From Elusimicrobiota bacterium (lineage in GTDB: Bacteria; Elusimicrobiota; Elusimicrobia; UBA1565; UBA9628): a stretch of DNA of 64,000 bases. The notes below the pieces were generated by a model. It ran no database searches. It was not told where the DNA came from and worked only from the letters and a program-made list of their open reading frames with translations. Positions 8,998 through 38,911 of this stretch are shown in pieces; the stretch's first letter is position 1; every line of letters begins with the position of its first letter. A program made the translations under genes and the position numbers. The stretch lies in contig DAHVNA010000001.1 in assembly GCA_027319565.1 (NCBI GenBank), positions 159,886-223,885 of the forward strand, read 5' to 3'.

Positions 8998-10062
8998 ATG
9001 ATGAAGGAAAAACTCTTCAAATTCCGAAAATTCCGATGGGGAATTGGGTTTCTCGCGTTATGGATGGGGTTTCCCGTTTGGGCTCTTGAGTCTTCCGCGC
9101 GCTTTGAAGAGCCGGTTCCAATTAATTTACATTCTTTTTCCAATGCCGTCCAACCCAATGATGTTTTGCCCGATCTGGGAAATTCTCCGAAAGAGATTTC
9201 TTTCCCAAGCGAAATTTTTCATAGAAAAGAGCGCCTTTTAAGTCCTCAGGTTCCTTTAGCTAGACCCCATGATCTAGCAGACAACGATCCTGCTCGGGGC
9301 TTTGTGCCATTTGAGAGAGTTGTCGAAAATTCCCCAAAATCCGTATTTCAGACGAAAACCGCTTCTCGCCTCAATCAGGAGTCGTTTAAAAGTCCTGTTA
9401 GCGGCGGGGTTCTTTTTGACGGCGCTCAAGAAAAAGAGGGGCCGTGGAAATACGATTTGGAGGGAGCGTTGTGGTTTTCCGGTCAACAGGCGCAACTGAT
9501 AGGTTCCGGTTCTTATGGGCGCGTTTTTGCGCATCCCGCTAATCAAGACTGGGTCGTTAAAGTGATTCACGGCAGCAGGATTTACGGGGCGACCGCGTTT
9601 TATGAACATCCGGAATTTTCCAATCTTGAGAAATTGTCTCAAGCCCATCTTTCTCCGCGCCCGATAGATACGGGTCTCATAAATGGCATTCCCTATATTA
9701 TTTCAGAGCGGGTGCATGGCGCGACCTTAGGAGACATCATTGGCGAGAAAAAATTTGGCATTAGGGAGTTAAAATTATTGCGGCAGATGTTTAACTCTCT
9801 TTTAAAGAGCCGGTTTTCCATCGTCGATCTAACCCCCAGCAATGTCATGTTGGGGCATACGGCGTCTAATCCAGAACCCCAAGCCTATATTATTGACGCG
9901 GGGCTTTTAACTTCGATTAGCGTTTTTGCTAATCCTTTTATTGATATCCAAGATTTGGTGAAAGATTGCAACGATTTGCTACGCCGATCAGGGAGCGTTC
10001 GAAAAATCGAGTTTGCGCGCCGGGAGATTGGTCATAAAGCCGCGCTTTTTTTCTCGCGTTAA
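8998..10062 (+). CDS. Signal-peptide-bearing protein with C-terminal protein-kinase-like domain
   Basis: GSGSYGRV glycine loop, VVK lysine, DLTPSN catalytic loop, IIDAG (DFG equivalent); N-terminal signal peptide and low-complexity linker. Confidence 0.75.
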   Translation: MMKEKLFKFRKFRWGIGFLALWMGFPVWALESSARFEEPVPINLHSFSNAVQPNDVLPDLGNSPKEISFPSEIFHRKERLLSPQVPLARPHDLADNDPARGFVPFERVVENSPKSVFQTKTASRLNQESFKSPVSGGVLFDGAQEKEGPWKYDLEGALWFSGQQAQLIGSGSYGRVFAHPANQDWVVKVIHGSRIYGATAFYEHPEFSNLEKLSQAHLSPRPIDTGLINGIPYIISERVHGATLGDIIGEKKFGIRELKLLRQMFNSLLKSRFSIVDLTPSNVMLGHTASNPEPQAYIIDAGLLTSISVFANPFIDIQDLVKDCNDLLRRSGSVRKIEFARREIGHKAALFFSR

Positions 10063-10066
10063 TTTA

Positions 10067-12280
10067 ATGAAGATATCTGCTCAAATTCTGTGGAGCCTTT
10101 TTCTTTTGATTTCTGCTCCCTTTTCTTATGCCGCTTCCGGCTGGGTTGAGGCGGATCCTGCGGGAGGCTTTTCAAAATATAACCCGGCGACCGTCGACCG
10201 GATTGAGTTTGGGAATCAATTTCAGAATCAGGGAATGGATCAATGGTGCGATCGATTCCCTCTCATCGTGCCCCTCAGTCAAGACTTTGTCAACGGTTTG
10301 GGGCCGGGAAGTTTGTTGGTCGGGGGAACTTTTTCGGGAACTAGACAATTTCTCCGCTATCCCGATGGCAGTCTTGCTCTCAACGATCAATTGGAAATTA
10401 AATTTCAAAGCGGATATGCGATGACCGCCGTCAAGAGCGCGGCAGGCATTTCTCAGAGGGCTTTAGGGGTTTACGCGGGGGTTTCCGTCGATGGGCAGTC
10501 GATTGTCACCCGTCCGCTTCACACCGCTGACTCTTGCAGCCAGGTCAAACGCCTTCTCAACGTGCTTGACTTTAAAACCGTTCTCCCGCTCAATGCCAAG
10601 AGAATTTCAAAAATGGAAGTGGGGGAATTGTGGGAAATTCCGCTGGTCTATCAGATTTCTTTTGAGCCTTTGGACGCGGCCCAGGTCCTGGAAACTCCGG
10701 GGTCTTTTACGCCTTTTTCCGCTTATTTCGCGATAGGCTTGTCTAAAACCGCGGACCCCACCGTGACTCTTTTTAGAAAATCTTCGCACGATTTGCGCCT
10801 CAAAATCCATTTCGATCAATTTAAGACCGTCAGCGCTTCCGGCGGAGCGGTCGTAGGGCCGATTCCAGCCACCGATATTGGAACTCCGGGAATTGAGTCG
10901 CTTTTATCGAACATGCTTCCGAATCTTATCTCGAATCCCGCGCTTAAACTTTTAACGCGAGAGGTGGATGATTATCTCGCGGCCCAGATTGCGGTTTTAG
11001 TCTCTCAAGAGCGCGGCGGGCAAATTTTACTCGAATACCGCTTGGATCCCGCCAATCAAAAACAGATGGAAGAACTCGCCAAGCTTTTGAAAGGCGATTT
11101 GAGCGTTCTTTCAGCGATGAAAAATCTGTTGGTCGACTGGAGGGGACGAGAAAACAAAGATATCGAAAAAACCCTCAACGCTTTAAGGCAAAGGCATTTG
11201 GAACATTTGCGCGTTTCCGAATCCTTGTCCGGTTTTGATCATTATCGACAGAGTCTTAAAACGCTCAATTTTTCGGTTCCGTTTCTTTTTAATTACAGCG
11301 GCTCGGTCGCGCGGAACACCGATCATTATGTGATCGCAGCGCCCCGAGGTCTTGAGTTCTATTCCTATAAGTCTCAAAAACAATCGAATTGGGGATTTTT
11401 AAAGCCCCCGATTGTGGGCTCTTCGTTGAGGCATAATCAGAGTCAAAGCGTGCAATCCCTTGTTTTTCTCAATGCGCGCCACGCTTCTAAAAATAAGGAT
11501 GAGCAATTAATAGTTTATAACCGGGAAACCGGCATTTTGCGCTTGGGAGATATCCAGCAGGAGTTGTCTCGAATTGATTCTTTGATTGCCTCTATCGGGT
11601 CTCTTCAAAATTTTCCGCCTGAGGCGGAAATTCCCAAAAAACTCAAGGATCTTGTTTCCGGTTCCGAACATAAAGGCTATGCGGAGTTAAGCGTGATTTT
11701 GACTCCAAAAGCGATTCATCAAATTATTTCTTCTTCCTCGGAATCTGTTCTCCGTGCCTTTGAGCTTTCGCTTTCCGGCGGCAACCGCGCGGTCTTTGAC
11801 TATGCCCTCAAATATTCAAGATTATCGGCCGATGGCAGCCTGCATTTTAAGCGTTCTTTTGTCCGACACTTGGACGAACTGAATTTGCCGGATCCAACCC
11901 GAAAAAGGCCGGAAATGGTTTTATCCAAGGCCGGGGTTTTATTTCACGAAGTCGAGCTTCTAATTTCTGATTTAAAGAGAGCGAAAAACATTCCTTCTCC
12001 GGAACAGCAATCAAAAGAGATTCTTAAGATATTGGACGGCAGTTCCCATTGGTTTGAGTCTTACTCTGGATATGGCCGGGTGGTTGAAGTTCTGTTGCGT
12101 CTTGCGCCGCGAGACGGGGTGGCCGCCGATTTGTTTTTCCATGTAGACAAAAAGAAAACCGATTCCTCAAACCCGAGCAAGCGCTATTTATTTAGCCCAG
12201 ATATTCTCAGCCAGGCTTCTCTGCGCGCGATTAGCGCCGTTGAGCGTTCCTTTATGCCGCCGACTTCGCTCAACGATTGA
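10067..12280 (+). CDS. Large exported hypothetical protein
   Basis: ATG 10067 gives signal peptide MKISAQILWSLFLLISAPFSYA; about 737 aa; no domain recognised. Confidence 0.7.
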   Translation: MKISAQILWSLFLLISAPFSYAASGWVEADPAGGFSKYNPATVDRIEFGNQFQNQGMDQWCDRFPLIVPLSQDFVNGLGPGSLLVGGTFSGTRQFLRYPDGSLALNDQLEIKFQSGYAMTAVKSAAGISQRALGVYAGVSVDGQSIVTRPLHTADSCSQVKRLLNVLDFKTVLPLNAKRISKMEVGELWEIPLVYQISFEPLDAAQVLETPGSFTPFSAYFAIGLSKTADPTVTLFRKSSHDLRLKIHFDQFKTVSASGGAVVGPIPATDIGTPGIESLLSNMLPNLISNPALKLLTREVDDYLAAQIAVLVSQERGGQILLEYRLDPANQKQMEELAKLLKGDLSVLSAMKNLLVDWRGRENKDIEKTLNALRQRHLEHLRVSESLSGFDHYRQSLKTLNFSVPFLFNYSGSVARNTDHYVIAAPRGLEFYSYKSQKQSNWGFLKPPIVGSSLRHNQSQSVQSLVFLNARHASKNKDEQLIVYNRETGILRLGDIQQELSRIDSLIASIGSLQNFPPEAEIPKKLKDLVSGSEHKGYAELSVILTPKAIHQIISSSSESVLRAFELSLSGGNRAVFDYALKYSRLSADGSLHFKRSFVRHLDELNLPDPTRKRPEMVLSKAGVLFHEVELLISDLKRAKNIPSPEQQSKEILKILDGSSHWFESYSGYGRVVEVLLRLAPRDGVAADLFFHVDKKKTDSSNPSKRYLFSPDILSQASLRAISAVERSFMPPTSLND

Positions 12281-13015
12281 TTAGAACCCGACGCCAATGT
12301 TAAGCTCGTAGCCGGAAATGCCATGGAATATCATGTAGGCTCCTCTGAGATCCACAAAGGGGAAAGGGGTGATGTCGATGCCGGCCGCCAAACGCGAACC
12401 CGTGGCTGTTGCCGCGAGCCCATCAAGGCCAGCGATTTGGGCCGTGTTGATTGTCGCTCTAGTGTCGTCAAAGCCCGCGCCGATAAAGGGCTGAACGATC
12501 GGCAGTCTCCAGATCGCGCTGAGGTCTCCTGATAAATGAGTCATCGAAAAGGCGCTGTCGTTGATCATGTCTCCCATCGCGGAAACCTCGACCGTCGGTA
12601 AAAAGAAAAGGAGGCGGGATGGAGTGAAGAGTCCATAGCGAAGGCCTCCACCTAAAACCGTCGCGCCATCGTAGCTAAATCCATGAGCTACGACGTCTAA
12701 ATGAAAGGGAAGCCCTAATGTTCCCTGAACCATTGGCAAGCCGAACGCCCCGGCGCCGCTGTTTTTTAGGACGATGTCATTTGAATTGGGGGCGGTTTGC
12801 GCTACTCCAACAAGTCCCAGGGAAAAACCGGGGAAACCATCCGGCGCTGTCGGGTCAAATTCCGCGCCTCCAAGAACTCCTCCGATATCGAGCGCAAAAG
12901 GCTTGAGCGCCTGGGAATTGATGAGTGACGAAAATTGATTAAAGGGTCCCGCCCAGGACCATAGCGGCAAAGATAACGGCATTAACGCCAACAAAAACAG
13001 AAATATTTTTTTCAT
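12281..13015 (-). CDS. Outer-membrane beta-barrel protein (DUF6588-like)
   Basis: Signal peptide, alternating beta strands, C-terminal Phe. Confidence 0.6.
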   Translation of the reverse strand: MKKIFLFLLALMPLSLPLWSWAGPFNQFSSLINSQALKPFALDIGGVLGGAEFDPTAPDGFPGFSLGLVGVAQTAPNSNDIVLKNSGAGAFGLPMVQGTLGLPFHLDVVAHGFSYDGATVLGGGLRYGLFTPSRLLFFLPTVEVSAMGDMINDSAFSMTHLSGDLSAIWRLPIVQPFIGAGFDDTRATINTAQIAGLDGLAATATGSRLAAGIDITPFPFVDLRGAYMIFHGISGYELNIGVGF

Positions 13016-13048
13016 GAAGAAAGGATATCAAAATTTTAGGAGAAATCT

Positions 13049-14251
13049 TTAATGAGATTTGAAAATGTCGGCTAAGGTCGTTAGTATGACGATATTTTTT
13101 GCCCCGGAATAGGACAGGCCGTTGATGAGGCGCATGGCATGTCTCCAGGATTTTTTGCAAGTATTGAGCTCGTTTGAATATTTGAGAATTTCATTGCGGA
13201 TTTCTTGCCGCATCGTCTTTGACCAATAACGCTTGGCCCTAGAATAGTTATCCTTGGCCTTTTGATATTTTTCCATGGACAATAAAAATTGCTTATGGCC
13301 GGAGTCGAGCAAATCCAGAACTTTTTCTTTGAGCGTTGGGGTGGGCAAGATTTCCAGTTTTTGCTTAGCTTTTTCCATTTCCACTTCCAGACGAGCTTTG
13401 AGAATCAGCGGTTCAGGAACGCTTCTTAGTTTTTTGGATAGACCGATAGCCTGGGTCGTCCACAGCCACCATTTGGTGATATCGAACTGATGCCAGTAAA
13501 TTCCATTTCTCCAATCCGCCGGAAATTTGTGATGAAAATTGTGATAACCCTCGCCGAATGTCAAAGGGGCTAAAAGCCAGTTGTCGCGAGCCGAGTTACT
13601 CATTGAATAGGGCTTTCCGCCCCAAACATGGGCGGCGGAATTAATCAGGAAGGTCATATGATGAACCACGACCATTCTAAAAAGGCCGCCCCATAAAAAC
13701 CCGCCGAGAGGGTGTCCCAAGATTAGGCCCAGCATTGTCGGCAGTCCAAAAGAGACCGCGACGACTAAAAAAGGGTACCAGCGGTCTTGCCAGAGAACAA
13801 GAGGATCTTTCGTTAAGTCCGGGGCGTTTTTCTTTCTCTGTTCCGCGAAGGGATCGGTGTAAAAAATCCACCCCATATGGGCGTAGAAAAAACCTTTTCC
13901 GATATTGTAGGGATCTTTTTCGCTGTCGACATACCGGTGGTGATCGCGGTGATCCGAGGCCCAGCTAAGAACTGAATTTTGGGCCGCCGCCGCGCCAAAA
14001 ATGAGATAGAAAAGCTGGAGGGGTTTGCCGCATTCATAGCTTCGATGGGAATAGTAGCGGTGGTATCCGGCGGTGATAGAAAGACCGGTGGCCAAATACA
14101 TAAGCGCGAACACGAAGAGATTGGCCCATGGAAATCCGTAATGGATTAAATACCATATCGCTCCCAAGAGAGCGGCGGTTGGAGTGGATGTCAGCCAAAA
14201 GAGATTGAGGTAGTTGATTTCTCTTTTTGGCTGTTGTGGTTGGGTCTCCAC
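13049..14251 (-). CDS. Delta-9 acyl-lipid/acyl-CoA fatty acid desaturase
   Basis: His boxes HRYYSH, HRDHH, HNFHH; GEGYHN; INSAAH. Confidence 0.92.
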   Translation of the reverse strand: METQPQQPKREINYLNLFWLTSTPTAALLGAIWYLIHYGFPWANLFVFALMYLATGLSITAGYHRYYSHRSYECGKPLQLFYLIFGAAAAQNSVLSWASDHRDHHRYVDSEKDPYNIGKGFFYAHMGWIFYTDPFAEQRKKNAPDLTKDPLVLWQDRWYPFLVVAVSFGLPTMLGLILGHPLGGFLWGGLFRMVVVHHMTFLINSAAHVWGGKPYSMSNSARDNWLLAPLTFGEGYHNFHHKFPADWRNGIYWHQFDITKWWLWTTQAIGLSKKLRSVPEPLILKARLEVEMEKAKQKLEILPTPTLKEKVLDLLDSGHKQFLLSMEKYQKAKDNYSRAKRYWSKTMRQEIRNEILKYSNELNTCKKSWRHAMRLINGLSYSGAKNIVILTTLADIFKSH

Positions 14252-14258
14252 AAAGGGC

Positions 14259-15572
14259 CTAGTAGCGGTAATTCTCGGTCTTGTAAGGTCCTTTGGGGTT
14301 AATTCCTAGATATTCCGCCTGTTTTTGATTGAGTTGCGTCAGATGAGCTCCGAGCTTATCTAAATGGATTCGCGCCACTCTCTCATCGAGCAGTTTGGGC
14401 AGGGTATAGACCTTGTTTTCGTATTTCTTATTCTCGCGATTGGACCATAATTCGATCTGGGCGAGAACTTGGTTGGAAAACGAGATGCTCATCACAAAGG
14501 AGGGGTGCCCCGAGGCGCATCCAAGGTTCACTAAGCGTCCTTCGGCCAGGACGATCAAAACTTTTCCATCCGGCCAGGTGAATTGATCGACCTGCGGCTT
14601 GACCGTCGTTCTTTTGAGTTTTTTGTCGTTCATTAAAGAAGCGACATCAATTTCAAGGTCGAAGTGCCCGATATTGCAGACGATCGCGTGGGATTTCATC
14701 GCGTCCATATGCTTTTTAGTGATGACATCGCAGCAACCGGTGGCGGTCACGAAAATATCTCCGATGGGAGCGGCTTCATCCATCGTGATGACGGAAAAGC
14801 CTTCCATGGAGGCTTGGAGAGCGGTAATAGGATCGATTTCGGTCACTAGAACTCGGGCCCCCATTCCTTTAAACGATTGCGCGCAGCCTTTGCCGACATC
14901 TCCATATCCGCAGACGACCGCGATTTTCCCCGCGATCATGACATCGGTGGCGCGTTTAATGCCGTCCAAAAGCGATTCTCTGCAGCCGTAGAGATTGTCG
15001 AATTTAGACTTGGTGCAGGAATCATTGACGTTAATGGCCGGAACCTTGAGTTTTCCTTGGGCCTCCCGTTGATACAGGCGATGAACCCCGGTCGTGGTCT
15101 CTTCCGACAAGCCGGCGATATCTTTTAAGAGATGGGGATACTTGTCGTGAATAATGTTTGTCAGGTCGCCGCCGTCATCGAGCAGAAGATTGGGGCCGAG
15201 TCCGCCTTCAAATTGGAGAGTTTGCTCAATGCACCAATCATATTCCTCAAGAGTTTCTCCCTTCCAGGCAAAAACGGGAATTCCCGCTTGGGCAATCGCC
15301 GCGGCGGCATGATCTTGAGTCGAGAAAATATTGCAAGAACTCCAGCGGACTTCCGCCCCCAATTGAATCAGGGTTTCAATTAAGACAGCCGTTTCAATGG
15401 TCATATGGAGGCATCCGGCGATTCGTGCCCCTTTGAGCGGTTTTTTGCCGCGATATTCCGCCCTTAAAGACATCAGCCCTGGCATTTCCGCTTCGGCTAA
15501 AGCGATTTCCTTTCTTCCCCAATCGGCAAGAGTGATATCTTTGACTTTGTAATCCATGGCGGCGGTCGGCAT
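14259..15572 (-). CDS. ahcY: Adenosylhomocysteinase
   Basis: [44 protein letters not shown] before ATG 15572. Confidence 0.97.
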
Positions 15573-15670
15573 AAATTTCTCCTTCCCAAGGCGAGACTTG
15601 GGCATTTTTTTACTAGCACTAACCACTTTATTGTAGCAAAACTCGCTATTGATGAGATACAATAAATGTC

Positions 15671-16264
15671 ATGAATAAAATCAACAGCCGTATTGCCGAG
15701 GAATTGACGGAAAGCGGGCGGGTCATCTCTCAGTCCGCTCAAATGGCCCCTTTGCTTGAGAAAGTAGCCGAAGAATTGGTGTCTTGTTATCGTCGCGGCA
15801 ACAAGATATTGACTTTTGGAAATGGCGGATCGGCTTGCGATGCCCAAAATTTCGCCGACGAACTCGTTGGCCGTTTCGAGCGCAATCGCCCACCCCTTCC
15901 GGCATTGGCTTTGACCACTAACACTTCGGATCTCACCTCAATATCCAACGATTTCGGTTATGAGGTTGTCTTTGCAAGGCAACTTGAGGCCCATGCCAAG
16001 CCCGGAGATATCGCGGTGGCGATATCGACCTCGGGAAACTCCAAAAATGTCCTTTTGGCCGCAGAAGCGGCAAAAAAATTAGGGCTTTTAGTCATCGGTC
16101 TTTCTGGAGAAAGCGGGGGGAAACTCAAAAATATCGCTGACTTCTGCGTTTGCGTCCCGTCTAAGACCGTCGCGCGCATCCAAGAGGCGCATATCGCCAT
16201 CATTCAAATCTGGTGCGGGATTATTGAGGACTCTCTTTTCCCGAATGCGCCAAAAGCCCATTGA
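15671..16264 (+). CDS. gmhA: D-sedoheptulose 7-phosphate isomerase
   Basis: GNGGSA, NDFGY, STSGNS, RIQEAH. Confidence 0.95.
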   Translation: MNKINSRIAEELTESGRVISQSAQMAPLLEKVAEELVSCYRRGNKILTFGNGGSACDAQNFADELVGRFERNRPPLPALALTTNTSDLTSISNDFGYEVVFARQLEAHAKPGDIAVAISTSGNSKNVLLAAEAAKKLGLLVIGLSGESGGKLKNIADFCVCVPSKTVARIQEAHIAIIQIWCGIIEDSLFPNAPKAH

Positions 16265-16743
16265 GACCGGCGATGGGAGAGATCGTTTCTTTAAAGACAG
16301 CCGCGCTGATCCGCCAAAGCCTGAAAAAAAAACATAAGACGGTTGTTTTTACCAATGGAGTCTTCGATATTTTGCACGCCGGTCATGTTCAGGTTCTGGA
16401 GCGGGCTAAAAAAATGGGAGATGTTTTAATTCTAGGCCTTAACCGCGATGAGTCGGTTCGCCTATTGGGAAAAGGCCCGGGCCGCCCGCTCAACCGCTTT
16501 AAAGACCGTGCCCGAGTTTTAGCGGCATTGTCGGCTGTTGACTACGTCGTTGGGTTTAAGGAAAAAACCCCTGAGAAGACGATTCGGGTTTTAAGGCCCG
16601 ATATCCTGGTTAAGGGCGCCGACTATTCAAAAAACCAAATCGCGGGCGCCGCCTTTGCCGGGAAAGTCGTCCGTATCGCGCTTAAAAAAGGCTATTCAAC
16701 GACAGCCCTGGTCAAAAAAATTCAGGGGTTATCCGCCGCCTGA
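16261..16743 (+). CDS. rfaE2: D-glycero-beta-D-manno-heptose 1-phosphate adenylyltransferase
   Basis: FTNGVFDILHAGH, LVKGADY, STT. Confidence 0.93.
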   Translation: MRPAMGEIVSLKTAALIRQSLKKKHKTVVFTNGVFDILHAGHVQVLERAKKMGDVLILGLNRDESVRLLGKGPGRPLNRFKDRARVLAALSAVDYVVGFKEKTPEKTIRVLRPDILVKGADYSKNQIAGAAFAGKVVRIALKKGYSTTALVKKIQGLSAA

Positions 16744-17273
16744 GTTTTCGCCGGTTTCTTTTTTTGGCGCGTTTTTGACTGGGGCGATTTAATTTTTTCC
16801 TTGCCCTTATTATTGGCGTTTAATTTTTCAAGCTCCGCGATTTTCTCTTGCGCTTTTTTAACGTCTTTGAGTAGCGGGCTTGAAGGGTGGGATTTTTCAA
16901 ACGCGCTTAGATCCGCTTGGGCTTGTTTGAGCTTTCCGGAGACGACTTCCTTAACGGCGGCGGCGAATTCCTTTCGTTCTTTGAGAGTTTGTTCTCTTTG
17001 GGAAACATTAGATTTCTCCCAAGTTGGTTGATTGAGTTTGGAGAGGTCTTGTTTGCTTCCGCGCACAGCCGCGACCGCGACTAAGTCGTTTCTATTTTCG
17101 TAGCTTTGTCCTACCGATGAGGCGGAGAGGCTTTGTTCCAGTTGAGTAAACCAATTCATCAGTAGTGTCGTGGTCGATTGCGCTTTTTGAGGCGGTGGCG
17201 CCTGTCCTTCGTCAGCCTTCGATGAACCGACGGCGAAGACGCTCAACGCGAGCGCAAGGATTATTTTTTTCAT
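16722..17273 (-). CDS. Exported hypothetical protein
   Basis: Signal peptide; VAAVRG motif; TPR-like C-terminal helix pair; overlaps the stop of the NHL-repeat gene. Confidence 0.65.
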   Translation of the reverse strand: MKKIILALALSVFAVGSSKADEGQAPPPQKAQSTTTLLMNWFTQLEQSLSASSVGQSYENRNDLVAVAAVRGSKQDLSKLNQPTWEKSNVSQREQTLKERKEFAAAVKEVVSGKLKQAQADLSAFEKSHPSSPLLKDVKKAQEKIAELEKLNANNKGKEKIKSPQSKTRQKKKPAKTQAADNP

Positions 17274-20764: not shown

Positions 20765-21033
20765 GATAACACGAGCATATCAATTTTTTGAGCTTTTTAG
20801 TCAATCAAGTCAATCTAAAACCAAAGTATAATGGGAAAATCGCGCTTTTTCAAGTGGGGATACTGCTAAAGCGGCGTTGTGGATATCTCCCGGCAACAAA
20901 AAGGAATCTTCCTTAGCTTCGGTCTAATGGACCGCTGAATTAAGCCAACCGCGTTTGCGGGCTTCTAGGATTTCGGCGGTATAGGCCTCTTTTAGTTTGC
21001 CCAATCTGCCTGCTATTGAGTATGATAGGCTGA

Positions 21034-22478: not shown

Positions 22479-22542
22479 CGCTCGGCCCTTTTTAGCCCCA
22501 AGGGTTTTAACAAAACAAAATTTAAATGGTATTCTGTTTAAA

Positions 22543-27531: not shown

Positions 27532-27533
27532 AG

Positions 27534-28487: not shown

Positions 28488-28548
28488 GCCCCGACTTCCA
28501 TCGGTGATGAATTATAAAAGAATTTGTGAACCACTGCGTTAGAACAGA

Positions 28549-28968: not shown

Positions 28969-29216
28969 TTTTTTTCTTTCATCTGTCCGGACAGCCGACA
29001 TCAACGCCTCCTTCTGTCTTTTTTCATCATTCTGGCAGTTGGTAAAACCCGCAAAGACCCATTGATGGAGCGGAAAAATGGGGCTACACTCTTTGGGTTG
29101 CGCGTTTTCGCGGAAGGGAGCCTCGCATGAGAAAAATATTGTTTTCAGCCGCCAAAATTCTCCCCGCTAATTCCGGCGAAACAATTAACTCCAAAAATTC
29201 CAACAGGAGGCGATCA

Positions 29217-29543
29217 ATGATTCAGAGATTAATGACGACTCCAATCAATAAAACAGTAAGGACGTAGATACGCCTTGCGGCAATTCTCGTGGCGGGCTTC
29301 CTGATAGCGGGAAATTATCAAGGATTTATCGCTCCCATATCCGATTGGATTGAAATACACATTCCTCACTGGGCCGCAAACGCAGATGTAATCATTGTGT
29401 CTTTATTCCCTATTACTCTTGAGTTGCCAAGGGACTCGGAAGCATCTTACTTGGCCGTCGTGATGTTTTCTCCTTTTATACTCATTTATGAGCCATGTTC
29501 CAGAATAGCGCTGAATTATCTCAATGGGGGAACGTCAGCGTGA
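29217..29543 (+). pseudogene. Possible decayed small membrane protein gene
   Basis: AGGAGG RBS then ATG 29217, in-frame TAG 29265-29267, frame continues with hydrophobic segments to 29543. Confidence 0.3.
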
Positions 29544-29869
29544 AGACATGAGGGAAATATGGATAGTCCTCACAATGTGGGTAAAACATGAGGGGAAAGG
29601 TGATGAAGAATAAGTCTAATTTGAGAGAATAGAAATAAGTTTCTATTCTGTATTTATGCTTCCTCATCTCCGGCGGCGGCGATGATCTGACCCCGCCAAT
29701 CTGGAAAGACGACAGCGGCCAAGAGCCTTTCTTCCCATTATTTTGACCTTGAGCAACCCGAGGACCGCCTCCGGTTGGATATACGCTGGGATGAAATTTC
29801 CCGTCCCGCCTTCGCGGCGATTCAAAAGCTTAGGCAGGAAGATTGTGCCCGCCGCAAAATCTCCGCTTG

Positions 29870-30991: not shown

Positions 30992-31790
30992 CGAGTATCT
31001 CCACGGGGAACTTTTTTTGAAGCGATTGCAAGTAGTTGTCTAATTTCTGTTTTTCAAGAATTTGGATAAAACGATCTTTATATTTTTCAAAAACCACTTT
31101 ATGCTGAGAGTCTTTGCGGATGACGTGATATCCAAATTTGGTCTTAATCGGCCCGCTGAGTTCTCCTACCCGCATTTGAAAAATGAGATCCTGAAGTTCG
31201 GGAATAATCTCTCCATAGAGGGCGGAAGGCATTTTCCCGCCTTTGACGGCCGAACCGCTGTCGAGAGAATATTTCCGCGCGAGCCGTGCGAAATTAGCGC
31301 CGCGGCGTATTCGCTTAAGAAGGGTTTCCGCGTCTTTTGGAGATGAAACTAATATCTGGCTAAAGACGACTTCATATGGATGTCTTTTCCAATAGGATTT
31401 CGCTTCATCTTCGCTGACCTTGGTGATGCGGGTATCCCTTAAGTTTTTTTCCCAATCTTGAATCAACAGGTATTTTAAGGCTTCGTGGAGGCGCAATTTT
31501 TCTTCTTCTTTGATTTTAGACGCTTCTTTTAGATATTCGGGAGACTCAGGTACTTTAGAGGCTTGCGCGGCGGCCAATTCTAATTTATCGCGGATGAGAA
31601 TGTCCAAAAACTGTTTTCTTCCGTCCGGGGTCATCACGTAATTTTGATACCCCGGGTCCACCTCGTTAAGGGCTTTTTGAAAATCCTCTTGGGTAATCGA
31701 CAGAGGCCCTACCGTCGCGATCACGGCCTGGCGCTTCTGACAAGCGGTTAGAGAAAAAACCGCCAGGCTGATTAAAAAAATCCTTCTCAT
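30975..31790 (-). CDS. PpiC-type peptidyl-prolyl isomerase lipoprotein
   Basis: Lipobox LTAC; FA.LARKYSLD, PIKTKFGYHVI. Confidence 0.88.
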   Translation of the reverse strand: MRRIFLISLAVFSLTACQKRQAVIATVGPLSITQEDFQKALNEVDPGYQNYVMTPDGRKQFLDILIRDKLELAAAQASKVPESPEYLKEASKIKEEEKLRLHEALKYLLIQDWEKNLRDTRITKVSEDEAKSYWKRHPYEVVFSQILVSSPKDAETLLKRIRRGANFARLARKYSLDSGSAVKGGKMPSALYGEIIPELQDLIFQMRVGELSGPIKTKFGYHVIRKDSQHKVVFEKYKDRFIQILEKQKLDNYLQSLQKKFPVEILDEQFK

Positions 31791-31807
31791 AATCAGTATT
31801 TATCCTA

Positions 31808-34800
31808 TCATTTTTCAAAGAACGCGCCGAGCCACTCAAGAGCGCTTTGACCCTTAAGAGAAATGACGAGTCCGTCTCCCTGCTTGGAACTGGTAAAGCG
31901 AATATCTTGCGAATATTTTTGGGTCCAACGTTGAATCTGTTCCGGGGCGATTTTTGCGGCAGAGCCGAAAATCAGCTCAAGCTCGTTTTTTCGTTGGGAA
32001 ATTTTGACGATTCCGATTTCGGCGGCCGATATTTTTATCCTAATGAGATTGAAAAGATTGATCACCGGATCGGGAAGAGGCCCCGCTAAGTCTTCCATTT
32101 CCTTTCGGATGGTTTCTAAATCCTCTTTTCTCGCGGAACTAAGCCTTCGGTAAAGTTCCAAGCGCTGCCTTTCCTCGGGGAAGTAGTCTTGGGGAATAAA
32201 GGCCGATAGCGGGAGATCTAGCGTCGTTTCTTCCGTTGGGAAGCGCGCGCTGGGGCTTTTCTTCTGGAGACTAGAGACTTCCTCCGTTAAAAGTTGGCTG
32301 TAGAGAGAAATTCCCACGTCGCGGACAAACCCGTGTTGGCGGCGTCCCAAAAGGTCTCCGGTTCCGCGAATCTCCATGTCTCGCATCGCCAGTTGCGCCC
32401 CGCTTCCCAAGTGGCCAAATTCCTTGAGCGCCTCAAGGCGTTTTTGCGCTTCTTCCGATATTCGGGAAAATTCCGCGTCCTTGGGATAAAGAAAATAGCA
32501 GAACGCTTTTTTTGATTCGCGTCCGATTCTCCCGCGCAATTGATAGAGTTGCGCTAGTCCGAACTCATGCGCGTCTTCGACGAGAAGAGTGTTCACCGAT
32601 GGAATATCAAGCCCCGATTCGATAATGGTAGAGGCCACTAAAACGTCAAATTTCTTTTTGTAGAAGTCCCACATCGCGCTTTCAATCTCAGAGCCTTTCA
32701 TCTGCCCGTGAACGATGACAAATCGAGTCGACGGCATTAAATCCTTGAGGTGATCCGTGGTTTCTTTCAGGGTTCTGACGCGGTTGTGAACATAATAGGC
32801 TTGTCCGCCGCGGGCGATTTCCTCTTCGATGGCGCTAATGACAGTTTCTTCGCTCCAGGGCAAAATGCGCGTCGTAATCGGCAAGCGTCCGGCGGGGGCG
32901 CTCTGGATAAAAGAGAGAGATCTCAGTCCCGACAATGCTTGCCCGAAGGTTCGGGGAATTGGAGTGGCCGACAAGGAAAGAACGTCTAGCGTCGCGCGAA
33001 AGCGCTTTATTTTTTCTTTATCTTCGACTCCAAAGCGGTGTTCTTCATCGATAACAGCCAACCCCAAATCCTTAAACCGGATATCTTTTTGAAGAAGCCG
33101 CGCGGTGCCAATGACGATGTCGACACGCCCCTCTGTCAGCTTTTCAATGACGGCTTTTTGCTCTGAGGGGCTTTGAAAGCGGGTGAGAAGACCCAGGCTT
33201 ATGGGATAATCGGCGAATCTTTTTGAAAAACTCCGGAAGTGTTGCTCGGCTAGGATGGTAGTCGGGACCAGAACGCAGGTCTGTTTGTTTCCCATCGCGC
33301 ATTTAAAGGAGGCGCGCATCGCCACTTCGGTTTTTCCAAATCCGACGTCTCCTAAAACTAAACGGTCCATCGGCTGGGGCTTGGACATGTCTTCTAATAC
33401 CTCGGCAATTGCGCGCGCTTGATCGGGAGTTTCTTGATAGGGAAATTCTTCGGCAAACTCCCGTTCGAGGGGATTATCCTTGGGGAAGGCATATCCCGGA
33501 GATGAGGCGCGTTCGGCTTGGGTTTTAAGGAGCTTTTCGGCCAGTTCTCTGACGCCTTCCCGCACTCGTTCCTTGATTTCTTCCCAGCGTCTTTGATCGA
33601 GGCTTGAAAGACGCGGGCGCCCGGAAGAGCCCGAGACGTATTTTTGTATGGCTGAGAACTCGCTCATCGGCAGATAGAGAACGGAGTCTCCGGCAAATGA
33701 AAGCCGGGCGCATTCAACCTGTCCAAAGCCGGGCGAGCGAATCATTTGAAGCCCGCCGTAGCGGGCGATCCCATAATCGCGGTGAACGACATAGTCTCCT
33801 TTTTGAAGATCCGAAGAATGGAGGCGGATCGGAGAGGGAATCGGGTAAGACAAGGCGCGGCGATATCTCCGATTGAAAATTTCCGAGGAGCTGTAGAAAG
33901 CGACTTTAAATTTCGGATGGATAAAACCGTTTCCAATTTCGCCGATCAAAAATTGGCAGCTCTCTTTGAGCGAATTGGGGAATATCTCTTGAATTCTGGA
34001 ATTCTCGCCTTGGTTAAGACTGTAGATAAAAACCTTAAATCCTTCTTGATTGAGTTTTTGAATTTCCTTAAACGCCTGTTCGGCGATTCCGTCCGTCGGC
34101 GGGTTGGATCTCGCCCCAAAATCGATATCTTGACTGGAGGTCTCAAGAAGGCGTCCCGCCCATATCCAACGCTTTTCGGGCGCGGTAAAATTTTCTGGCA
34201 GGACAAGACCGTCTTCCGCAATCCACAGCGCGTTTGAGAGAAAACTTTGACCGAGCCAATTCCATAATGGCGCGGAATCGATCTGGGCGCTTTCGGAAGA
34301 GGCGGGAACGGCTTGGGCTTTTAAAATAGTTCCAGAGCTCATTTGCGTGCCGGGGTCAAAGGAGCGCAGGGAAGCGATTTTATTTCCATCAAAAAGAATT
34401 CGCGTAGGATTTTCGGAATTGGGGCTATAAAAATCAAGGATCGCTCCGCGAATCGCGAAATCACCGGGAGATTCGACGAAATCCGAACGCAGGTAACCCA
34501 ATTGGATTAAATTTTGAGCGGCTTCATCGCGATTGAGCGCGGTGTCAACAGAGAAAGCGAGAGTTCTCTGTCGGAAAAACTGCGGAGAGGGAACTTTGGC
34601 CTCCAGGGCTTTAAGATTTAAGACAAATAAAGCGGTGTCGGGATTAATGAGCGAAAGGTTTTTGAGCCTTTGCGGCTGGTCTTCTCCAAAAACAGCGGAG
34701 ATTAATTTTAAATTTTTTGGAAACAAGGGAGTCAGCGCGGAAAAAGCGGAGTTGATTTCTTCAATGCGCTCTTCCTCGTTGACGAGAAACACGAGCGGAC

Positions 34801-34900
34801 CGTTTAAAGCCGGGAGAAAAGAAATTTCTTTTTTGGAAAGATAAAGTTGCGCGAGGTACGCCCAGGCGGAAGCGGTCGGCAGTCCGATCAGGCGCGGCAT
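31808..34900 (-). CDS. mfd: Transcription-repair coupling factor
   Basis: CarD-like YVVH..YGI, GDVGFGKTEVA, DEEHRFGV, QLRGRIGR, TRCF C-terminus. Confidence 0.95.
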   Translation of the reverse strand: MPRLIGLPTASAWAYLAQLYLSKKEISFLPALNGPLVFLVNEEERIEEINSAFSALTPLFPKNLKLISAVFGEDQPQRLKNLSLINPDTALFVLNLKALEAKVPSPQFFRQRTLAFSVDTALNRDEAAQNLIQLGYLRSDFVESPGDFAIRGAILDFYSPNSENPTRILFDGNKIASLRSFDPGTQMSSGTILKAQAVPASSESAQIDSAPLWNWLGQSFLSNALWIAEDGLVLPENFTAPEKRWIWAGRLLETSSQDIDFGARSNPPTDGIAEQAFKEIQKLNQEGFKVFIYSLNQGENSRIQEIFPNSLKESCQFLIGEIGNGFIHPKFKVAFYSSSEIFNRRYRRALSYPIPSPIRLHSSDLQKGDYVVHRDYGIARYGGLQMIRSPGFGQVECARLSFAGDSVLYLPMSEFSAIQKYVSGSSGRPRLSSLDQRRWEEIKERVREGVRELAEKLLKTQAERASSPGYAFPKDNPLEREFAEEFPYQETPDQARAIAEVLEDMSKPQPMDRLVLGDVGFGKTEVAMRASFKCAMGNKQTCVLVPTTILAEQHFRSFSKRFADYPISLGLLTRFQSPSEQKAVIEKLTEGRVDIVIGTARLLQKDIRFKDLGLAVIDEEHRFGVEDKEKIKRFRATLDVLSLSATPIPRTFGQALSGLRSLSFIQSAPAGRLPITTRILPWSEETVISAIEEEIARGGQAYYVHNRVRTLKETTDHLKDLMPSTRFVIVHGQMKGSEIESAMWDFYKKKFDVLVASTIIESGLDIPSVNTLLVEDAHEFGLAQLYQLRGRIGRESKKAFCYFLYPKDAEFSRISEEAQKRLEALKEFGHLGSGAQLAMRDMEIRGTGDLLGRRQHGFVRDVGISLYSQLLTEEVSSLQKKSPSARFPTEETTLDLPLSAFIPQDYFPEERQRLELYRRLSSARKEDLETIRKEMEDLAGPLPDPVINLFNLIRIKISAAEIGIVKISQRKNELELIFGSAAKIAPEQIQRWTQKYSQDIRFTSSKQGDGLVISLKGQSALEWLGAFFEK

Positions 34901-35809
34901 TTAGGTTAAGGCGACTTGGCGCGCGAGCTCTTTGAGAAATGAGGATCTTAGGCTTGTGTCCTTGCAAAGAGACTTGAGATGCCGGGCCTGGCTTCCGTCT
35001 TCGCGGGCCAAGAAAACCCGCATTTCAATTCCCTCGGGCTTAATCTCGGCAAAGGCGCCCAGCGGAGTCGAGCATCCGCCGCCGACCAGGCGCAAGAATT
35101 CTCTTTCCCATTCAACCGCGATTCGGGTCGGCCCGTGATCGAGAATTTGAGAAAAAAGACGCAGATCGTCTTTGAGGCGGGATTCAATGGCCAAGGCGCC
35201 TTGCCCGGGGGCCGGGACCATCGCGTCAAGTTCAATGAAGTGAGCCAGGGGAATTTCCCGCTTAAGCCTCTTGAGTCCTGCGGCCGCTAAAATAATTCCG
35301 TCCAAGGATTTTTCTTCCAATTTTTTTAGCCGGGTGTCTACGTTGCCGCGAAGAGGTGTTGTCGTCACTCCCGGAAAAAGGATTTTGGTCTGGATTTGTC
35401 TTCTCAGGGAAGAAGTGCCGATTTTGTGTTCCGCCTTAAGCTCTTTCCATTTAAGCCCGTCGCGTCCGATAAAAACGTCTTGCGGGTTTTCCCGTTCCGG
35501 GTAGGCCAAGATATGGAGTTCTTCCGGAATTTCAGCGGGCATGTCTTTCGCGCTGTGGACGGCTAAATCAATTTCTTTTTTGAGCAGGGCTTCTTCGATT
35601 TCCTTGACGAACAGCCCCTTGGTCCCTTGGGGAGACAAGGAGGCGGCATGCGCTTCCTGGGGGGAATGATTCTGAAACAAATCTCCCGAGGTCTTGATGA
35701 TTTTGAGTTCGGTTTCTACAGAGGGGTCTATTTCCTTAAGTCGGCTCTCAACCCAGTGGCTTTGGGCCAGGGCCAGGGGCGAGCCTCGCGTTCCAATTTT
35801 TAGCTTCAC
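34901..35809 (-). CDS. hemC: Hydroxymethylbilane synthase
   Basis: GTRGSPLAL.Q, KGLF.KE, VHSAKD, GTSSLRR, RGNV.TRL, GGGCS.P. Confidence 0.96.
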   Translation of the reverse strand: MKLKIGTRGSPLALAQSHWVESRLKEIDPSVETELKIIKTSGDLFQNHSPQEAHAASLSPQGTKGLFVKEIEEALLKKEIDLAVHSAKDMPAEIPEELHILAYPERENPQDVFIGRDGLKWKELKAEHKIGTSSLRRQIQTKILFPGVTTTPLRGNVDTRLKKLEEKSLDGIILAAAGLKRLKREIPLAHFIELDAMVPAPGQGALAIESRLKDDLRLFSQILDHGPTRIAVEWEREFLRLVGGGCSTPLGAFAEIKPEGIEMRVFLAREDGSQARHLKSLCKDTSLRSSFLKELARQVALT

Positions 35810-35849
35810 TTAATCATTGTAGAAAATTCCAATTTTCTATAATCACGAG

Positions 35850-36920
35850 ATGCCGCAAAAACCGTTTCTTAAATGGATCGAAATTGATTTAAAGGCCATT
35901 CGCTCTAATCTTGATTGGATTATTTCCGAGTCAAGGCCCCTGACCCAGGTGATGGCGGTTTTAAAAGCGGATGCATATGGGCACGGGATGATTCCCGTGG
36001 CGAGAGAAGCGGTCAAGGCCGGCGTTCCTTTTATAGGGGTTTTAAGCGTGGATGAGGCCCGGCAGCTTAGAAGCGCGGGAATTTCTCATCCTCTTTGTTT
36101 AATGGCGCCGATTTTGCCGTCCCTGGCCGAAGAGGCGGTTAAACTTAAAACTTCGGTGACGGTCGATAATCTGGAGCAGTTGCGCGCGCTCAATGCCAAG
36201 GCATCCTTTTCTCATCCCGTTTCCGTCCATATTGATTTGGATTTCGGCCTTGGCCGTTGGGGAATTTCTCCGCGGCGGATAGCTTGGTTTGTCTTGAGTC
36301 TCAAGCGCTTTAAGAAAATCCGTTTTCAAGGCCTTTCCGCTCATATCGATTATATTCCCGGGAAAAACGCAGTCGAGGCGGAGGAAAAATTGCGCGATTT
36401 TAACCAGATCGCTCAGCGGCTTAAAAAAACGCATCCGGGTTTAATTTGTCATGCCGCCAATAGTTCTGTTTTTCTTGATTTTCCTCATTGGAGAATGGAT
36501 CTGGCTCGAATCGGGAATTTAATTTACGGAATTAACGCCGCGAAATCAAAACCGGTTCCGCTTAAAAATCCCTGGCGCTTTCAGGCGCGAATCGTCCATA
36601 TCCGCGCGATTGCCGCTGGCGAGTCCGTGGGATACGCGAGCGCCTACGTTTCTCCGAGGGAAATGAAGGTCGCGACCCTCTTGGCCGGATACTCCGATGG
36701 AATCACGATGGAGCCCGCCGAGAGGCTGATTCGCCTGGGTTCCGGCTTTGAGTATTGGGGAATGATGGGGAAAAACAAGACGCCGTTTATCGGCGGCTGC
36801 GGAATTTCCCATCTGCTGGTGGACGTTAGCGAAATTCCCCGCGCTAATGTCGGAGATATCATCACTCTTCCGGCGCGCCGCACTGCCGCTCATTCCCGGA
36901 TTCCGCGGGTCTACATTTAA
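35850..36920 (+). CDS. alr: Alanine racemase
   Basis: AVLKADAYGHG PLP lysine; HAANS; GESVGY. Confidence 0.9.
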   Translation: MPQKPFLKWIEIDLKAIRSNLDWIISESRPLTQVMAVLKADAYGHGMIPVAREAVKAGVPFIGVLSVDEARQLRSAGISHPLCLMAPILPSLAEEAVKLKTSVTVDNLEQLRALNAKASFSHPVSVHIDLDFGLGRWGISPRRIAWFVLSLKRFKKIRFQGLSAHIDYIPGKNAVEAEEKLRDFNQIAQRLKKTHPGLICHAANSSVFLDFPHWRMDLARIGNLIYGINAAKSKPVPLKNPWRFQARIVHIRAIAAGESVGYASAYVSPREMKVATLLAGYSDGITMEPAERLIRLGSGFEYWGMMGKNKTPFIGGCGISHLLVDVSEIPRANVGDIITLPARRTAAHSRIPRVYI

Positions 36921-36937
36921 TGATAGACAGCTCTCAA

Positions 36938-37005
36938 CTGGGTCTTTTGCCGGGAAAGCTCTAGGCCTTTTGGCCCTTGGGGTCTGTTGTATTGTTCGAT
37001 ACAAT
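36938..37005 (+). promoter_or_regulatory. Bipartite operator plus -10 box (copy 2)
   Basis: CTGGGTCTTTTG-N11-CTAGGCCTTTTGGCCC-N23-TACAAT; matches 8926-8993. Confidence 0.7.
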
Positions 37006-37075
37006 GATAAGGCCGGATAAAACGGCGCGGGAAAGTGCTTAAAATCGCTTAACTCATATAAAAAGGAGAATTCCC

Positions 37076-38911
37076 ATCAAAAAAATAACTGCCTGGGCGC
37101 TGGCGGCGACGTTGACGGTTTTATCTCCGGGGCTTTCTTCTTATCAGGCCTTTGCGGCGGAATTTTCAGAACCAAATCCTGAAATTTCTTCTCTTGAGTT
37201 GCGCAATCCTTCCGCTTCTAATCCTCTCGGTCAAGCTCCTTCCATTGAAGAATTTCAAGACCTCTCTGTCGAGCCAAAAACTGGCGCGGTTTTGCCGGCG
37301 GCAGAAGCGGCGGAAACAAAGGTTTTAGAGTCCAAGCCTTCTCTGCCCCAGGCGCGCGCCTTACCCAAGAACACTGCGAAAACTGCGCCCGCTTTTTTCC
37401 CGACTCCGAAAGAATCTTTACCGCAAGGCCGCCGGTTTTTTAGGAGTCTTGTCAAAAAGATTTCCGGTGTATCCCCGGCGTCAAGAAAAATTTCACTGGG
37501 CGTTCTTAACCGCCTCTTTGATCGGCAAAAAAAATCCAGGTCTTTATCTCTTCCAAGCGTTCAAGATATTTCAAGACCTTCAGCTCACAATCTCGCGCTT
37601 AAAGCGGGGCTTTCCGGCGGTGTTGAAAAGCCCGAAGTTCGACTGCCCATTGAAAGCGCGGGAAACTTGGAAGACGCTCCTTCGCCCAGAAAATTTAAAT
37701 GGCTGAGAGAAATTCAAGAGTTGCCTTCCCAATTTTTGTGGAAATATGTTCCGGGTTGGTCTATCGCCGCGATGGGGGGAGAAATGCAGGCGGTGGCTCT
37801 TCCGGTGTTTACCGCGCAGGTCTTTGGCCTTTCCCAAGCCATTATCGCTTCCGGCGTCAATTTGATTGCCCGCATTCCCGGCGCTTGGACCGGAGCTTTT
37901 TTTGTCGGCCATTTTAGCCCCAAGGTCATTAACAACGCCGCCTTGATTATTTCCGCTTTAAGCGGCGGACTTGTTCCCGCAGCCATTTTTCTTCATTTAT
38001 CCCATGCCGCTCTTTTGGGAGCGTTTTTGCTGGGGTCGGCTTTGTCGGGGTTGGTCTACGGCGCGACGCGGGGAGTGACCGAGAATTTAATTCCTCCGCT
38101 TTTGATTGCGGATAGGTCCCAGCGGGAATTTGGCCTTAACTACGCCTATCAATGGGTGGAGTTGAGTTCGATTGCGATGGCGATGATTTCGGTCCCGCTT
38201 CTTCATGTTTTCGGTGGAAGCGTAATGCTGGGAATTTCCAGTTCCTTTTTCCTGATTTCAACTTTATTTTACGCTTCTTTAAAGCTACATAAGCCGAACG
38301 CTTCTCCCGCTTCTCCGGTAGCGCTCGATAAAACTTCCGAGAAAGGGCTTTCTTGGCGAAATTATGTTCCGTTTGTGTTCTTTCGCTTAATGCATTTTTC
38401 CCTGTATGCGGTTTTTGCCGCCGCCATTTCCCTGGGAATTCTTCACTCGGACAAAATGACCGGAAATATTATTGGGTCTTACGACTTTGGAAGCTGGGTG
38501 TTCGGGTTTTTAGCGACCATGGCTCTTCTTCCTAAAAAAGGGGAGAGGTCTTGGACATTTTTTGGAGTGGGGACGGCCTTGGCGTTTTTGTGGGCCAGCT
38601 CTCTTCTTTCCATACCCGCTTTATCGATGGTCCTTGCGGGGGTCATGGGCGGCATGATCATGATTAATTCCAACAAATGGATGAGTCTCTACCAAGAAAA
38701 ACTGCATCAATCCAAACTCAAAAATCTCTCTAAATGGATGATGACGGCTAGTATCTTGGGGACTCTCCCTATCTTTATCGCCGCCAGCCTAAGCCAAATT
38801 TTCCCCGCCTGGGCCGCTGTTTTGACGATGCCCCACATCATCATCTTCGCCAATATTTTGGTGACGATCCTTGGGATTTTAACCCTTTTAGCCTTCAAAT
38901 CCTCCCGCTAA
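37076..38911 (+). CDS. MFS-like multi-TM protein with signal peptide and long low-complexity N-terminal extension
   Basis: AAGGAG RBS then in-frame ATC-KKITAWALAATLTVLSPGLSSYQAFA; about 200 aa linker; about 12 hydrophobic helices. Confidence 0.65.
   Translation: MKKITAWALAATLTVLSPGLSSYQAFAAEFSEPNPEISSLELRNPSASNPLGQAPSIEEFQDLSVEPKTGAVLPAAEAAETKVLESKPSLPQARALPKNTAKTAPAFFPTPKESLPQGRRFFRSLVKKISGVSPASRKISLGVLNRLFDRQKKSRSLSLPSVQDISRPSAHNLALKAGLSGGVEKPEVRLPIESAGNLEDAPSPRKFKWLREIQELPSQFLWKYVPGWSIAAMGGEMQAVALPVFTAQVFGLSQAIIASGVNLIARIPGAWTGAFFVGHFSPKVINNAALIISALSGGLVPAAIFLHLSHAALLGAFLLGSALSGLVYGATRGVTENLIPPLLIADRSQREFGLNYAYQWVELSSIAMAMISVPLLHVFGGSVMLGISSSFFLISTLFYASLKLHKPNASPASPVALDKTSEKGLSWRNYVPFVFFRLMHFSLYAVFAAAISLGILHSDKMTGNIIGSYDFGSWVFGFLATMALLPKKGERSWTFFGVGTALAFLWASSLLSIPALSMVLAGVMGGMIMINSNKWMSLYQEKLHQSKLKNLSKWMMTASILGTLPIFIAASLSQIFPAWAAVLTMPHIIIFANILVTILGILTLLAFKSSR

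Follow-up and report, generated by a model that had tools for sequence, protein, structure and literature searches.

Host-targeting leaders are known from Plasmodium (PEXEL) and from oomycetes (RXLR-EER), where, in the accessible portions of the reports, a signal peptide and a short leader motif precede otherwise unrelated cargo bound for another cell (PMC4740378; PMC11754927; PMC1464399). A leader of comparable design precedes two genes in a 64,000-nucleotide stretch of DNA from an Elusimicrobiota bacterium (GTDB lineage Bacteria; Elusimicrobiota; Elusimicrobia; UBA1565; UBA9628; assembly GCA_027319565.1, contig DAHVNA010000001.1, positions 159,886 to 223,885 of the forward strand), referred to here in its entirety as the window. 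One gene encodes a protein-kinase-like domain and the other a 12-helix carrier of the major facilitator superfamily (MFS), and about 28 proteins of the genome share the same plan of a signal peptide followed by a low-complexity leader. The occurrence of one leader and one promoter on extra copies of cytoplasm-type machines suggests that these proteins are sent into another bacterium for feeding. As far as the same portions of the reports go, the eukaryotic leaders differ in using the endoplasmic reticulum pathway and another motif, nearer the signal peptide, and no homology is implied. In the Elusimicrobiota class the motif is degenerate and lies 100-150 residues into the mature chain, and the cargo includes polytopic carriers and AAA+ machines. 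The PEXEL and RXLR consensus is RxLxE/Q/D or RxLR shortly after the signal peptide; the class does not conform to it, and de novo ranking of its motifs yields FDG.

Bacterial comparisons are more partial. According to the section of the source available, transmembrane effectors of the Legionella type IVB secretion system also reach a host membrane in two steps, via an inner-membrane intermediate, but they carry a C-terminal signal read on the cytoplasmic side, need Dot/Icm and enter a eukaryotic host (PMC11602083). The class signal is instead N-terminal, behind a Sec signal peptide, and the genome gave no VirB4 match with the one family tried. Bdellovibrio transfers PopA to the inner membrane of its prey (PMC12228718), and at the feeding junction of B. 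exovorus the contents of the prey are digested in situ (10.1101/2023.10.25.563945); PopA, however, is a beta-barrel outer-membrane protein, and the available parts of these two reports describe neither a shared leader nor ATPase or alpha-helical carrier cargo. Giant proteins of Omnitrophota, which are suspected predators, likewise place signal peptides on chains of cytoplasm-type enzymes beside loci resembling a type II secretion system (T2SS), but they are giant single open reading frames in another phylum, and the excerpts mention neither a leader motif nor a promoter held in common and propose no delivery to a host cytoplasm (10.1101/2023.11.21.568195; 10.64898/2026.06.07.730766). Substrates of Sec and signal peptidase I (SPase I) with disordered N-terminal tethers have similar signal-peptide features, whereas the cargo and topology of the class are of the cytoplasmic or inner-membrane type. 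No described bacterial system was found that matches the leader class, nor did a literature search, with most subscription journals outside its coverage, find a paper on this leader. A survey of Elusimicrobia genomes leaves secretion, predation, pili and signal peptides unmentioned in its main text, and its supplements may bear on the point (10.1101/765248).

The kinase-type gene of the window (open reading frame 8998-10062) displays the following elements:

8926-8941, + strand: weaker upstream box of the shared promoter motif; the two-box layout, 23-24 bp apart, recurs genome-wide
8949-8964, + strand: main pseudo-palindromic box CTRGGCCTTTWGGCCC, a probable activator site; exact match, 28.0 bits by position weight matrix (PWM)
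8988-8993, + strand: -10-like hexamer TATACT, 21 nucleotides downstream of the 20-mer; transcript probably leaderless
8998-9084, + strand: Sec/SPase-I-type signal peptide, probably starting at ATG 9001 and probably cleaved after VWA
9085-9402, + strand: low-complexity leader, varying between orthologues
9403-9423, + strand: GGVLFDG motif, residues 136-142; F-D-G forms an invariant island in 5/5 orthologues
9445-10062, + strand: minimal protein-kinase-like cargo, with a GxGSxGxV loop, K188, D277/N282 and DAG

The MFS gene (open reading frame 37112-38911) is arranged similarly:

36938-36953, + strand: weaker upstream promoter box, by motif match
36961-36976, + strand: main promoter box; exact match, PWM 28.9 bits, also present before 5/5 same-genus orthologues
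37000-37005, + strand: -10-like hexamer TACAAT, 21 nucleotides downstream of the 20-mer
37063-37069, + strand: Shine-Dalgarno-like AAGGAGA, ahead of a probable non-AUG start, ATC 37076
37076-37156, + strand: signal peptide ending in QAFA; A-x-A ends also occur in distant homologues
37157-37504, + strand: low-complexity leader, acidic and then basic in composition
37505-37525, + strand: LNRLFDR motif, residues 132-138; LFDR in 4/5 orthologues and LFDQ in 1/5
37526-37726, + strand: linker after the motif and an amphipathic helix before transmembrane helix 1, from orthologues and the structure model
37727-38911, + strand: cysteine-free 12-helix MFS carrier cargo, modeled with a predicted local distance difference test (pLDDT) score of 87.8; its leader side is the positive (cytoplasmic) face

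The original prediction, made from the letters of the window, had attributed to both genes a signal peptide, a Pro/Ser/Glu-rich linker of about 110-130 residues, an "LFD" motif and a normally non-exported cargo. This plan is present in both genes at the positions listed, the signal peptides being called by our own heuristic, and the linkers between signal peptide and motif, which are indeed Pro/Ser/Glu-rich, measure 106 residues in the kinase-type protein and 116 in the MFS protein. The former probably starts at ATG 9001, immediately 3′ of the TATACT box. Among its five orthologues (55-83% identity), the linker drifts freely, while F140-D141-G142, the signal-peptide end (W28-A29 and E31 are invariant) and the kinase motifs are kept, with the Gly-rich loop, beta-3 Lys, catalytic Asp/Asn and DFG-equivalent unchanged in all five. 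Five distant kinase-bearing proteins carry FDG or YDG ahead of the kinase or at the leader end, and one has a QFDH variant instead. Profile matches to YrbL and MAD6 are weak and below cut-off, feature matches in the ESM Atlas are to kinases (0.96-0.97), and a search of PDB sequences returned no match. The structure model has low confidence (pLDDT 39.6, and <50 for residues 1-147); its Foldseek matches are kinases, at root-mean-square deviations of 5-15, and the nearest look-alikes in these weak searches include minimal effector kinases. The kinase fold is thus supported by motifs and weak searches, and the MFS fold, which had been proposed alongside it, is confirmed by modeling: the AlphaFold2 model contains 12 helices and no additional one, and its Foldseek matches are MFS carriers (best E 1.6e-7), with a Pfam MFS_1 score below cut-off.

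The signal peptide of the MFS protein begins 5′ of TTG 37112, in a frame that reads IKKITAWALAAT behind an AGGAG site, and an N-terminus closely resembling this upstream extension is found in all five same-genus orthologues. The gene therefore probably starts at ATC 37076, a non-AUG codon kept across the genus. About 65 further linker residues separate FDR from MFS helix 1. A signal peptide, an Ala/Pro/Ser linker and FDG are also present in five distant MFS homologues whose N-termini are intact; the leader of the window protein gave no usable feature match in the ESM Atlas.

Beyond the window, the class was delineated in the 2.03-Mb assembly (111 contigs, 91.65% complete), with 1,849 genes called by a hexamer model, on which all class counts depend. 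The best labelled matches to the YchF-like GTPase of this assembly belong to Elusimicrobiota. Signal peptides were assigned throughout by a simple rule (n-region, h-region and cleavage site) that misses some clear members, such as a 4,659-residue protein, and lets through some membrane proteins. The list of 28 members was assembled by hand; a shorter list of 24 underlies the cysteine and twin-arginine translocation (Tat) counts. The leaders are 100-170 residues long and disordered, acidic and then basic, and usually end in a helix and F-D/x-G. Mature residues 1-40 are net negative in 25/25 class proteins with a called signal peptide and residues 80-130 net positive in 23/25, compared with median charges of 0 and 0 in other signal-peptide proteins. 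Fifteen of the 28 members contain FD[G/R], seven a variant (YDG, IDG, WDG, FWSG, FFGE, FNDG or FFDL) and five no motif, and one is cut at its 5′ end.

The proteome-wide enrichment that the original prediction called for is found, as is the co-occurrence of the leader motif with the shared DNA motif. Excluding the two window genes, 9/32 proteins having both promoter and signal peptide contain FDG within mature residues 60-200, against 7/270 with a signal peptide alone (p 4e-6) and 17/870 others (p 6e-8). It ranks first among 7,884 three-letter and gapped motifs (9/32 vs 24/1,140, p 6e-8), and 5,000 composition-keeping shuffles gave a mean of 0.54 and a maximum of 5, vs 9 observed. The enrichment test includes C25_11276 (2,413 residues, HLFDG), which is on neither the 24- nor the 28-member list, its N-terminus not being of low complexity. 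When proteins were picked without regard to motif or promoter, by signal peptide and disorder in the first 100 residues, 16/29 had the promoter. A 14-column profile of the FDG neighborhood separates the groups weakly, picking out 9/29 leader-like and 10/305 other signal-peptide proteins at score 8. In relatives, 16 hand-picked N-termini follow the same plan and end in LFEG, MYDG, YEG, LFDN, MFDS, IFNG, VFDG or FWS(G); the motif is therefore wider than LFD, which proved too strict as a defining feature, and on these N-termini is better described as a helix followed by a hydrophobic residue and F/Y-x-G. The idea that FDG is a repeated cut site between domains found no support, since most members have a single site near the N-terminus; a 5,636-residue relative has two FDG sites in no clear pattern.

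The promoter motif upstream of both window genes (8949 and 36961) defines a regulon. Seven matches with ≤2 mismatches lie in the window (shuffles: mean 1.37, maximum 4), and the genome contains 28 matches to CTRGGYCTTTWGKCC with ≤1 mismatch, 27 of them intergenic, where two shuffles gave 3 and 2. Sites often consist of two boxes spaced 23-24 bp apart, and TAnnnT follows exactly 21 nucleotides downstream in 25/35 strong sites; this fixed distance places the main box approximately at the position where class II activators bind. Candidate regulators comprise three CRP/FNR-type and nine sigma-70 region-2 matches. A start codon is often found 53-56 nucleotides from the motif, so that the mRNA is probably leaderless. 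Using a profile built from the 28 near-exact sites, with genes marked at a score ≥14, 49 genes carry the promoter, and a signal peptide is called in 35 of them, vs 374/1,721 others (p 4e-13). The promoter precedes 20/28 class members, on a list drawn in part from promoter genes. Among the regulon members with a signal peptide and no such leader are two lytic transglycosylases and two amidases, together with a C92 amidase-like protein and a phosphatase. Each of five same-genus genomes has 10-14 copies of the exact 16-mer; across 25 further genomes of the order the count is 0-3, and the reversed 16-mer is absent from all the genomes sampled. A PAS-GGDEF cyclase and a lone receiver-domain protein (entries L211 and L120) also have the motif at 53 nucleotides, tying the regulon to cyclic di-GMP signaling.

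The cargo identified by Pfam and NCBIfam bears out the proposal that it is of a normally non-exported type. It includes proteolytic enzymes (three FtsH, a ClpA/B-type ATPase, M1, C1B, M48, S8 and Rce1 with DegP), other enzymes (GH15, an alpha-amylase with membrane helices, LOG, a PLD and the kinase) and membrane proteins (two MFS, a tandem MscS and HAD-IIB fused to SemiSWEET); about a third of class cargoes match no Pfam or NCBIfam family. Catalytic signatures such as Walker A/B and HExxH are intact, and leaderless paralogues of FtsH, PepN, LOG and Clp are encoded in the same genome. In relatives the list extends to a P-type ATPase, a LonB-like protease and a combination of ATP-grasp, MFS and LOG (4/12 proteins had matches). 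The tandem MscS (L098, G000:C23:47119-48879) is found in 5/7 sampled genomes of the order and in 0/143 others sampled in the phylum; five genomes behind loci labelled Elusimicrobiaceae, Elusimicrobium or Elusimicrobiales, of completeness not given, yielded nothing beyond weak generic MscS matches.

Several individual cargoes are also of note. The tandem-duplicated MscS carries the leader with an RWxxFWSG variant. In L103 (G000:C38:13133-15325), a HAD-IIB-like domain is fused to SemiSWEET/PQ-loop repeats behind the leader, possibly forming a module that dephosphorylates and releases sugar. L093 (G000:C56:31701-45680) is a leader protein of 4,659 residues that is cysteine-free past the signal peptide and matches no Pfam or NCBIfam family. 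In relatives, Clp ATPase modules reside inside mostly cysteine-free open reading frames of 1,349-2,416 residues (L234-L245), and a 1,609-residue fusion joins the leader to ATP-grasp, MFS and LOG (L186:5231-10060, genome G024). Three paralogues of a cargo family of about 650 residues (L081, L091 and L210) have counterparts in genome G006; the two that were scanned match no Pfam or NCBIfam family.

Two kinds of feature point to passage through Sec. The basic n-region, hydrophobic h-region and A-x-A site typical of Sec/SPase I substrates are present, with cleavage-site residues conserved, and the signal peptides are as hydrophobic as those elsewhere in the exported proteome (p 0.77); the Tat motif xRRx[FLIVM][LIVM] occurs in 0/24 class N-termini, though TatC is encoded. 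The class is also almost devoid of cysteine. Twenty-four members contain 10 in 20,232 residues (0.049%), compared with 0.535% in other soluble signal-peptide proteins, 0.98% in non-exported soluble proteins and 0.77% in membrane proteins. Aligned pairs with paralogues give 0 Cys in 8,026 class residues vs 26 in 8,103 paralogue residues, the pairs being non-independent and some paralogues counted more than once. Both window cargoes fit this purge, the MFS protein having none vs 2-4 in each of seven housekeeping MFS, and two 400-kb samples from relatives show 0.18% and 0.13% in leader-like proteins vs about 0.56% and 1.0%. Cysteine exclusion is described as a mark of exported proteins in the available part of one report (PMC2823432), and DsbB and VKOR were not found in this genome, at its 91.65% completeness.

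Other features are those of proteins that work in a cytoplasm. The loops on the leader side of the window MFS contain 21 Lys/Arg in 126 residues and those on the opposite side 1 in 72, with limits set by hand from the model, and the same bias is seen in 20/20 aligned sequences from three families. By the positive-inside rule, the Lys/Arg-rich side is cytoplasmic. The leader side of the modeled carrier is therefore its cytoplasmic face, which conflicts with insertion in the producer's own membrane, since a cleaved signal peptide would leave that side in the periplasm. In two of the FtsH proteins, two helices lie between leader and AAA domain, so that leader and ATPase are on the same side. The Clp ATPase of the class has no membrane helix and retains LGF in the [ILVM]GF loop, the ClpP-docking element, which is present in 16/18 Clp ATPase homologues, including at least one of housekeeping type; the single ClpP found in the genome has no signal peptide. 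Taken together, the cysteine purge, the helix parity of MFS and FtsH and the Clp loop make the class look exported and yet, as far as sequence can tell, built for a cytoplasm.

It could be, then, that the leader is the two-part address of a co-regulated feeding kit. The signal peptide would take the unfolded chain through Sec, which would explain why cysteine is purged and why the mature part begins acidic. The leader might then be recognized outside the inner membrane, and a type IV pilus, T2SS-like or Tad machine would probably hand the chain on to an attached bacterium, into its cytoplasm; machinery of these types is present, with 13 PF00437 ATPase matches over cut-off and four secretins in a 2-Mb genome. 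In the recipient, the ClpA/B-type and FtsH ATPases, peptidases, glucanases, LOG and kinase would use host ATP and substrates, acting on host proteins, glycogen, nucleotides and the inner membrane, while MFS, SemiSWEET and MscS could insert, normally oriented, into the inner membrane of the host and release monomers. The host would be bacterial because wall hydrolases belong to the regulon. The cysteine purge, positive-inside bias, ClpP-docking loop and leaderless paralogues all agree with export followed by action in a cytoplasm, and we regard as evenly poised the proposal that Sec export is followed by putative delivery into the cytoplasm and inner membrane of another bacterium. The wider scenario is put forward tentatively, with doubt somewhat outweighing belief: an order of Elusimicrobiota would live as epibiotic predators or parasites that make a living bacterium a nutrient exporter, through wall-opening enzymes and tagged cargo, Sec and a pilus/T2SS-like conduit, host ATP, docking to host ClpP and insertion in the host inner membrane.

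A number of observations weigh against delivery into another cell. Passage of a 12-helix protein through Sec without release into the producer's own membrane is unexplained: class helices as a whole are weaker than others (medians 0.8 and 0.3, p 4e-5; 37 vs 936 segments), but the helices of the two class MFS are not weaker than those of seven housekeeping MFS (p 0.42). A second signal-peptide-like segment before MscS, a lead to how N-out cargo might be handled, is clear in some homologues and not in others, and MscS topology is ambiguous. A two-AAA FtsH has one clear helix, fitting the producer's inner membrane. No translocation machine is seen in the regulon, and the machine genes lack a strong promoter motif. 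In the 91.65% complete genome, the type III secretion marker FHIPEP (SctV/FlhA) and the type VI sheath VipB/TssC (PF05943) gave no match, and neither did VirB4 (PF03135), the one family tried, which matches just 1/14 control genomes, so that a divergent type IV system is possible. Type III effectors, moreover, lack the Sec signal peptides that the class proteins have. The motif is absent from 5/28 class members, and strict FDG-type motifs occur in 0/6 and 2/6 of the leader-like proteins in the 400-kb samples of two other genera. Cargoes such as S8, GH15, DegP and M1 are ordinary for exported proteins. Biosynthetic and respiratory genes are retained (e.g. carbamoyl-phosphate synthase), and obligate dependence on a host is therefore unsupported.

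Some of these points would be met if the cargo stayed in the producer's periplasm, or in a sealed feeding junction receiving prey cytoplasm with its ATP and ClpP, with transporters inverted in the producer's inner membrane and the leader serving to tether or sort the chain. Polytopic proteins would then need no second translocation, the signal peptides, cysteine purge and hydrolase cargo would be accounted for, the one-helix FtsH would suit the producer's own membrane, and Bdellovibrio exovorus is described, in the accessible part of one report, as digesting prey in situ at a sealed junction (10.1101/2023.10.25.563945). An inverted MFS, however, should have shifted its Lys/Arg to the other face, which has happened in none of the 20 sequences from three families, and the genome yielded no ClpP that carries a signal peptide; a digestive compartment of this kind seems rather unlikely. 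More simply, the leader could be a generic disordered pro-region or spacer, with FDG a site for a chaperone, protease or vesicle-sorting factor, and the cargo active at periplasmic, surface or vesicle sites without any target cell. The many hydrolases, the short and degenerate motif missing from some members, the cysteine exclusion known for exported proteins (PMC2823432, in the part available) and the failure to find DsbB and VKOR would all agree with this. Such secretion has no use, though, for intact ATP-driven Clp, FtsH, LonB-like protease, P-type ATPase, ATP-grasp and kinase or for 12-helix carriers, and the genome's other exported proteins hold ten times more cysteine, which makes it unlikely. 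An absence of export would cover together the dependence on ATP, the ClpP loop and the normal topology of MFS and FtsH, the signal peptide being masked or an uncleaved anchor and leader and cargo facing the producer's cytoplasm as a second, stage-specific housekeeping set; this is quite improbable, as it leaves unaccounted for the purge of cysteine relative to cytoplasmic paralogues, the conserved A-x-A ends, the exported-type hydrophobicity and acidic early mature region, and the co-regulation with wall hydrolases. That unrelated low-complexity N-termini contain FDG by accident can hardly be credited: FDG is just three letters, and 24/1,140 background proteins carry it in the same stretch, but its first rank, the shuffles, which reached 5 at most vs 9, the invariant island in orthologues and its recurrence in three families speak against chance.

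Should delivery into another bacterium prove correct, the class would be the bacterial equivalent of the host-targeting leaders of eukaryotes and would provide a route by which ATP-driven machines and 12-helix transporters pass between bacteria after Sec export. It would also imply a predatory or parasitic lifestyle for free-living Elusimicrobiota, so far described as heterotrophs or autotrophs; a complete genome from order UBA1565 is described as that of an aerobic heterotroph from an amoeba culture (PMC9476967). Promoter and leader together constitute a sequence rule by which cargo can be catalogued, and even under the rival explanations, intact Clp, FtsH and MFS behind cleavable signal peptides imply an envelope arrangement that we have not found described.

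Directly 3′ of the kinase-type gene, at 10067-12280 on the + strand, lies a gene for a 737-residue signal-peptide protein with no Pfam match and no low-complexity leader, which is probably co-transcribed with it. Among the matches listed for positions 8700-10100 of the window there are no RNA datasets; the DNA matches are labelled mine-drainage metagenomes and come from two studies, and the source may be part of one of them.

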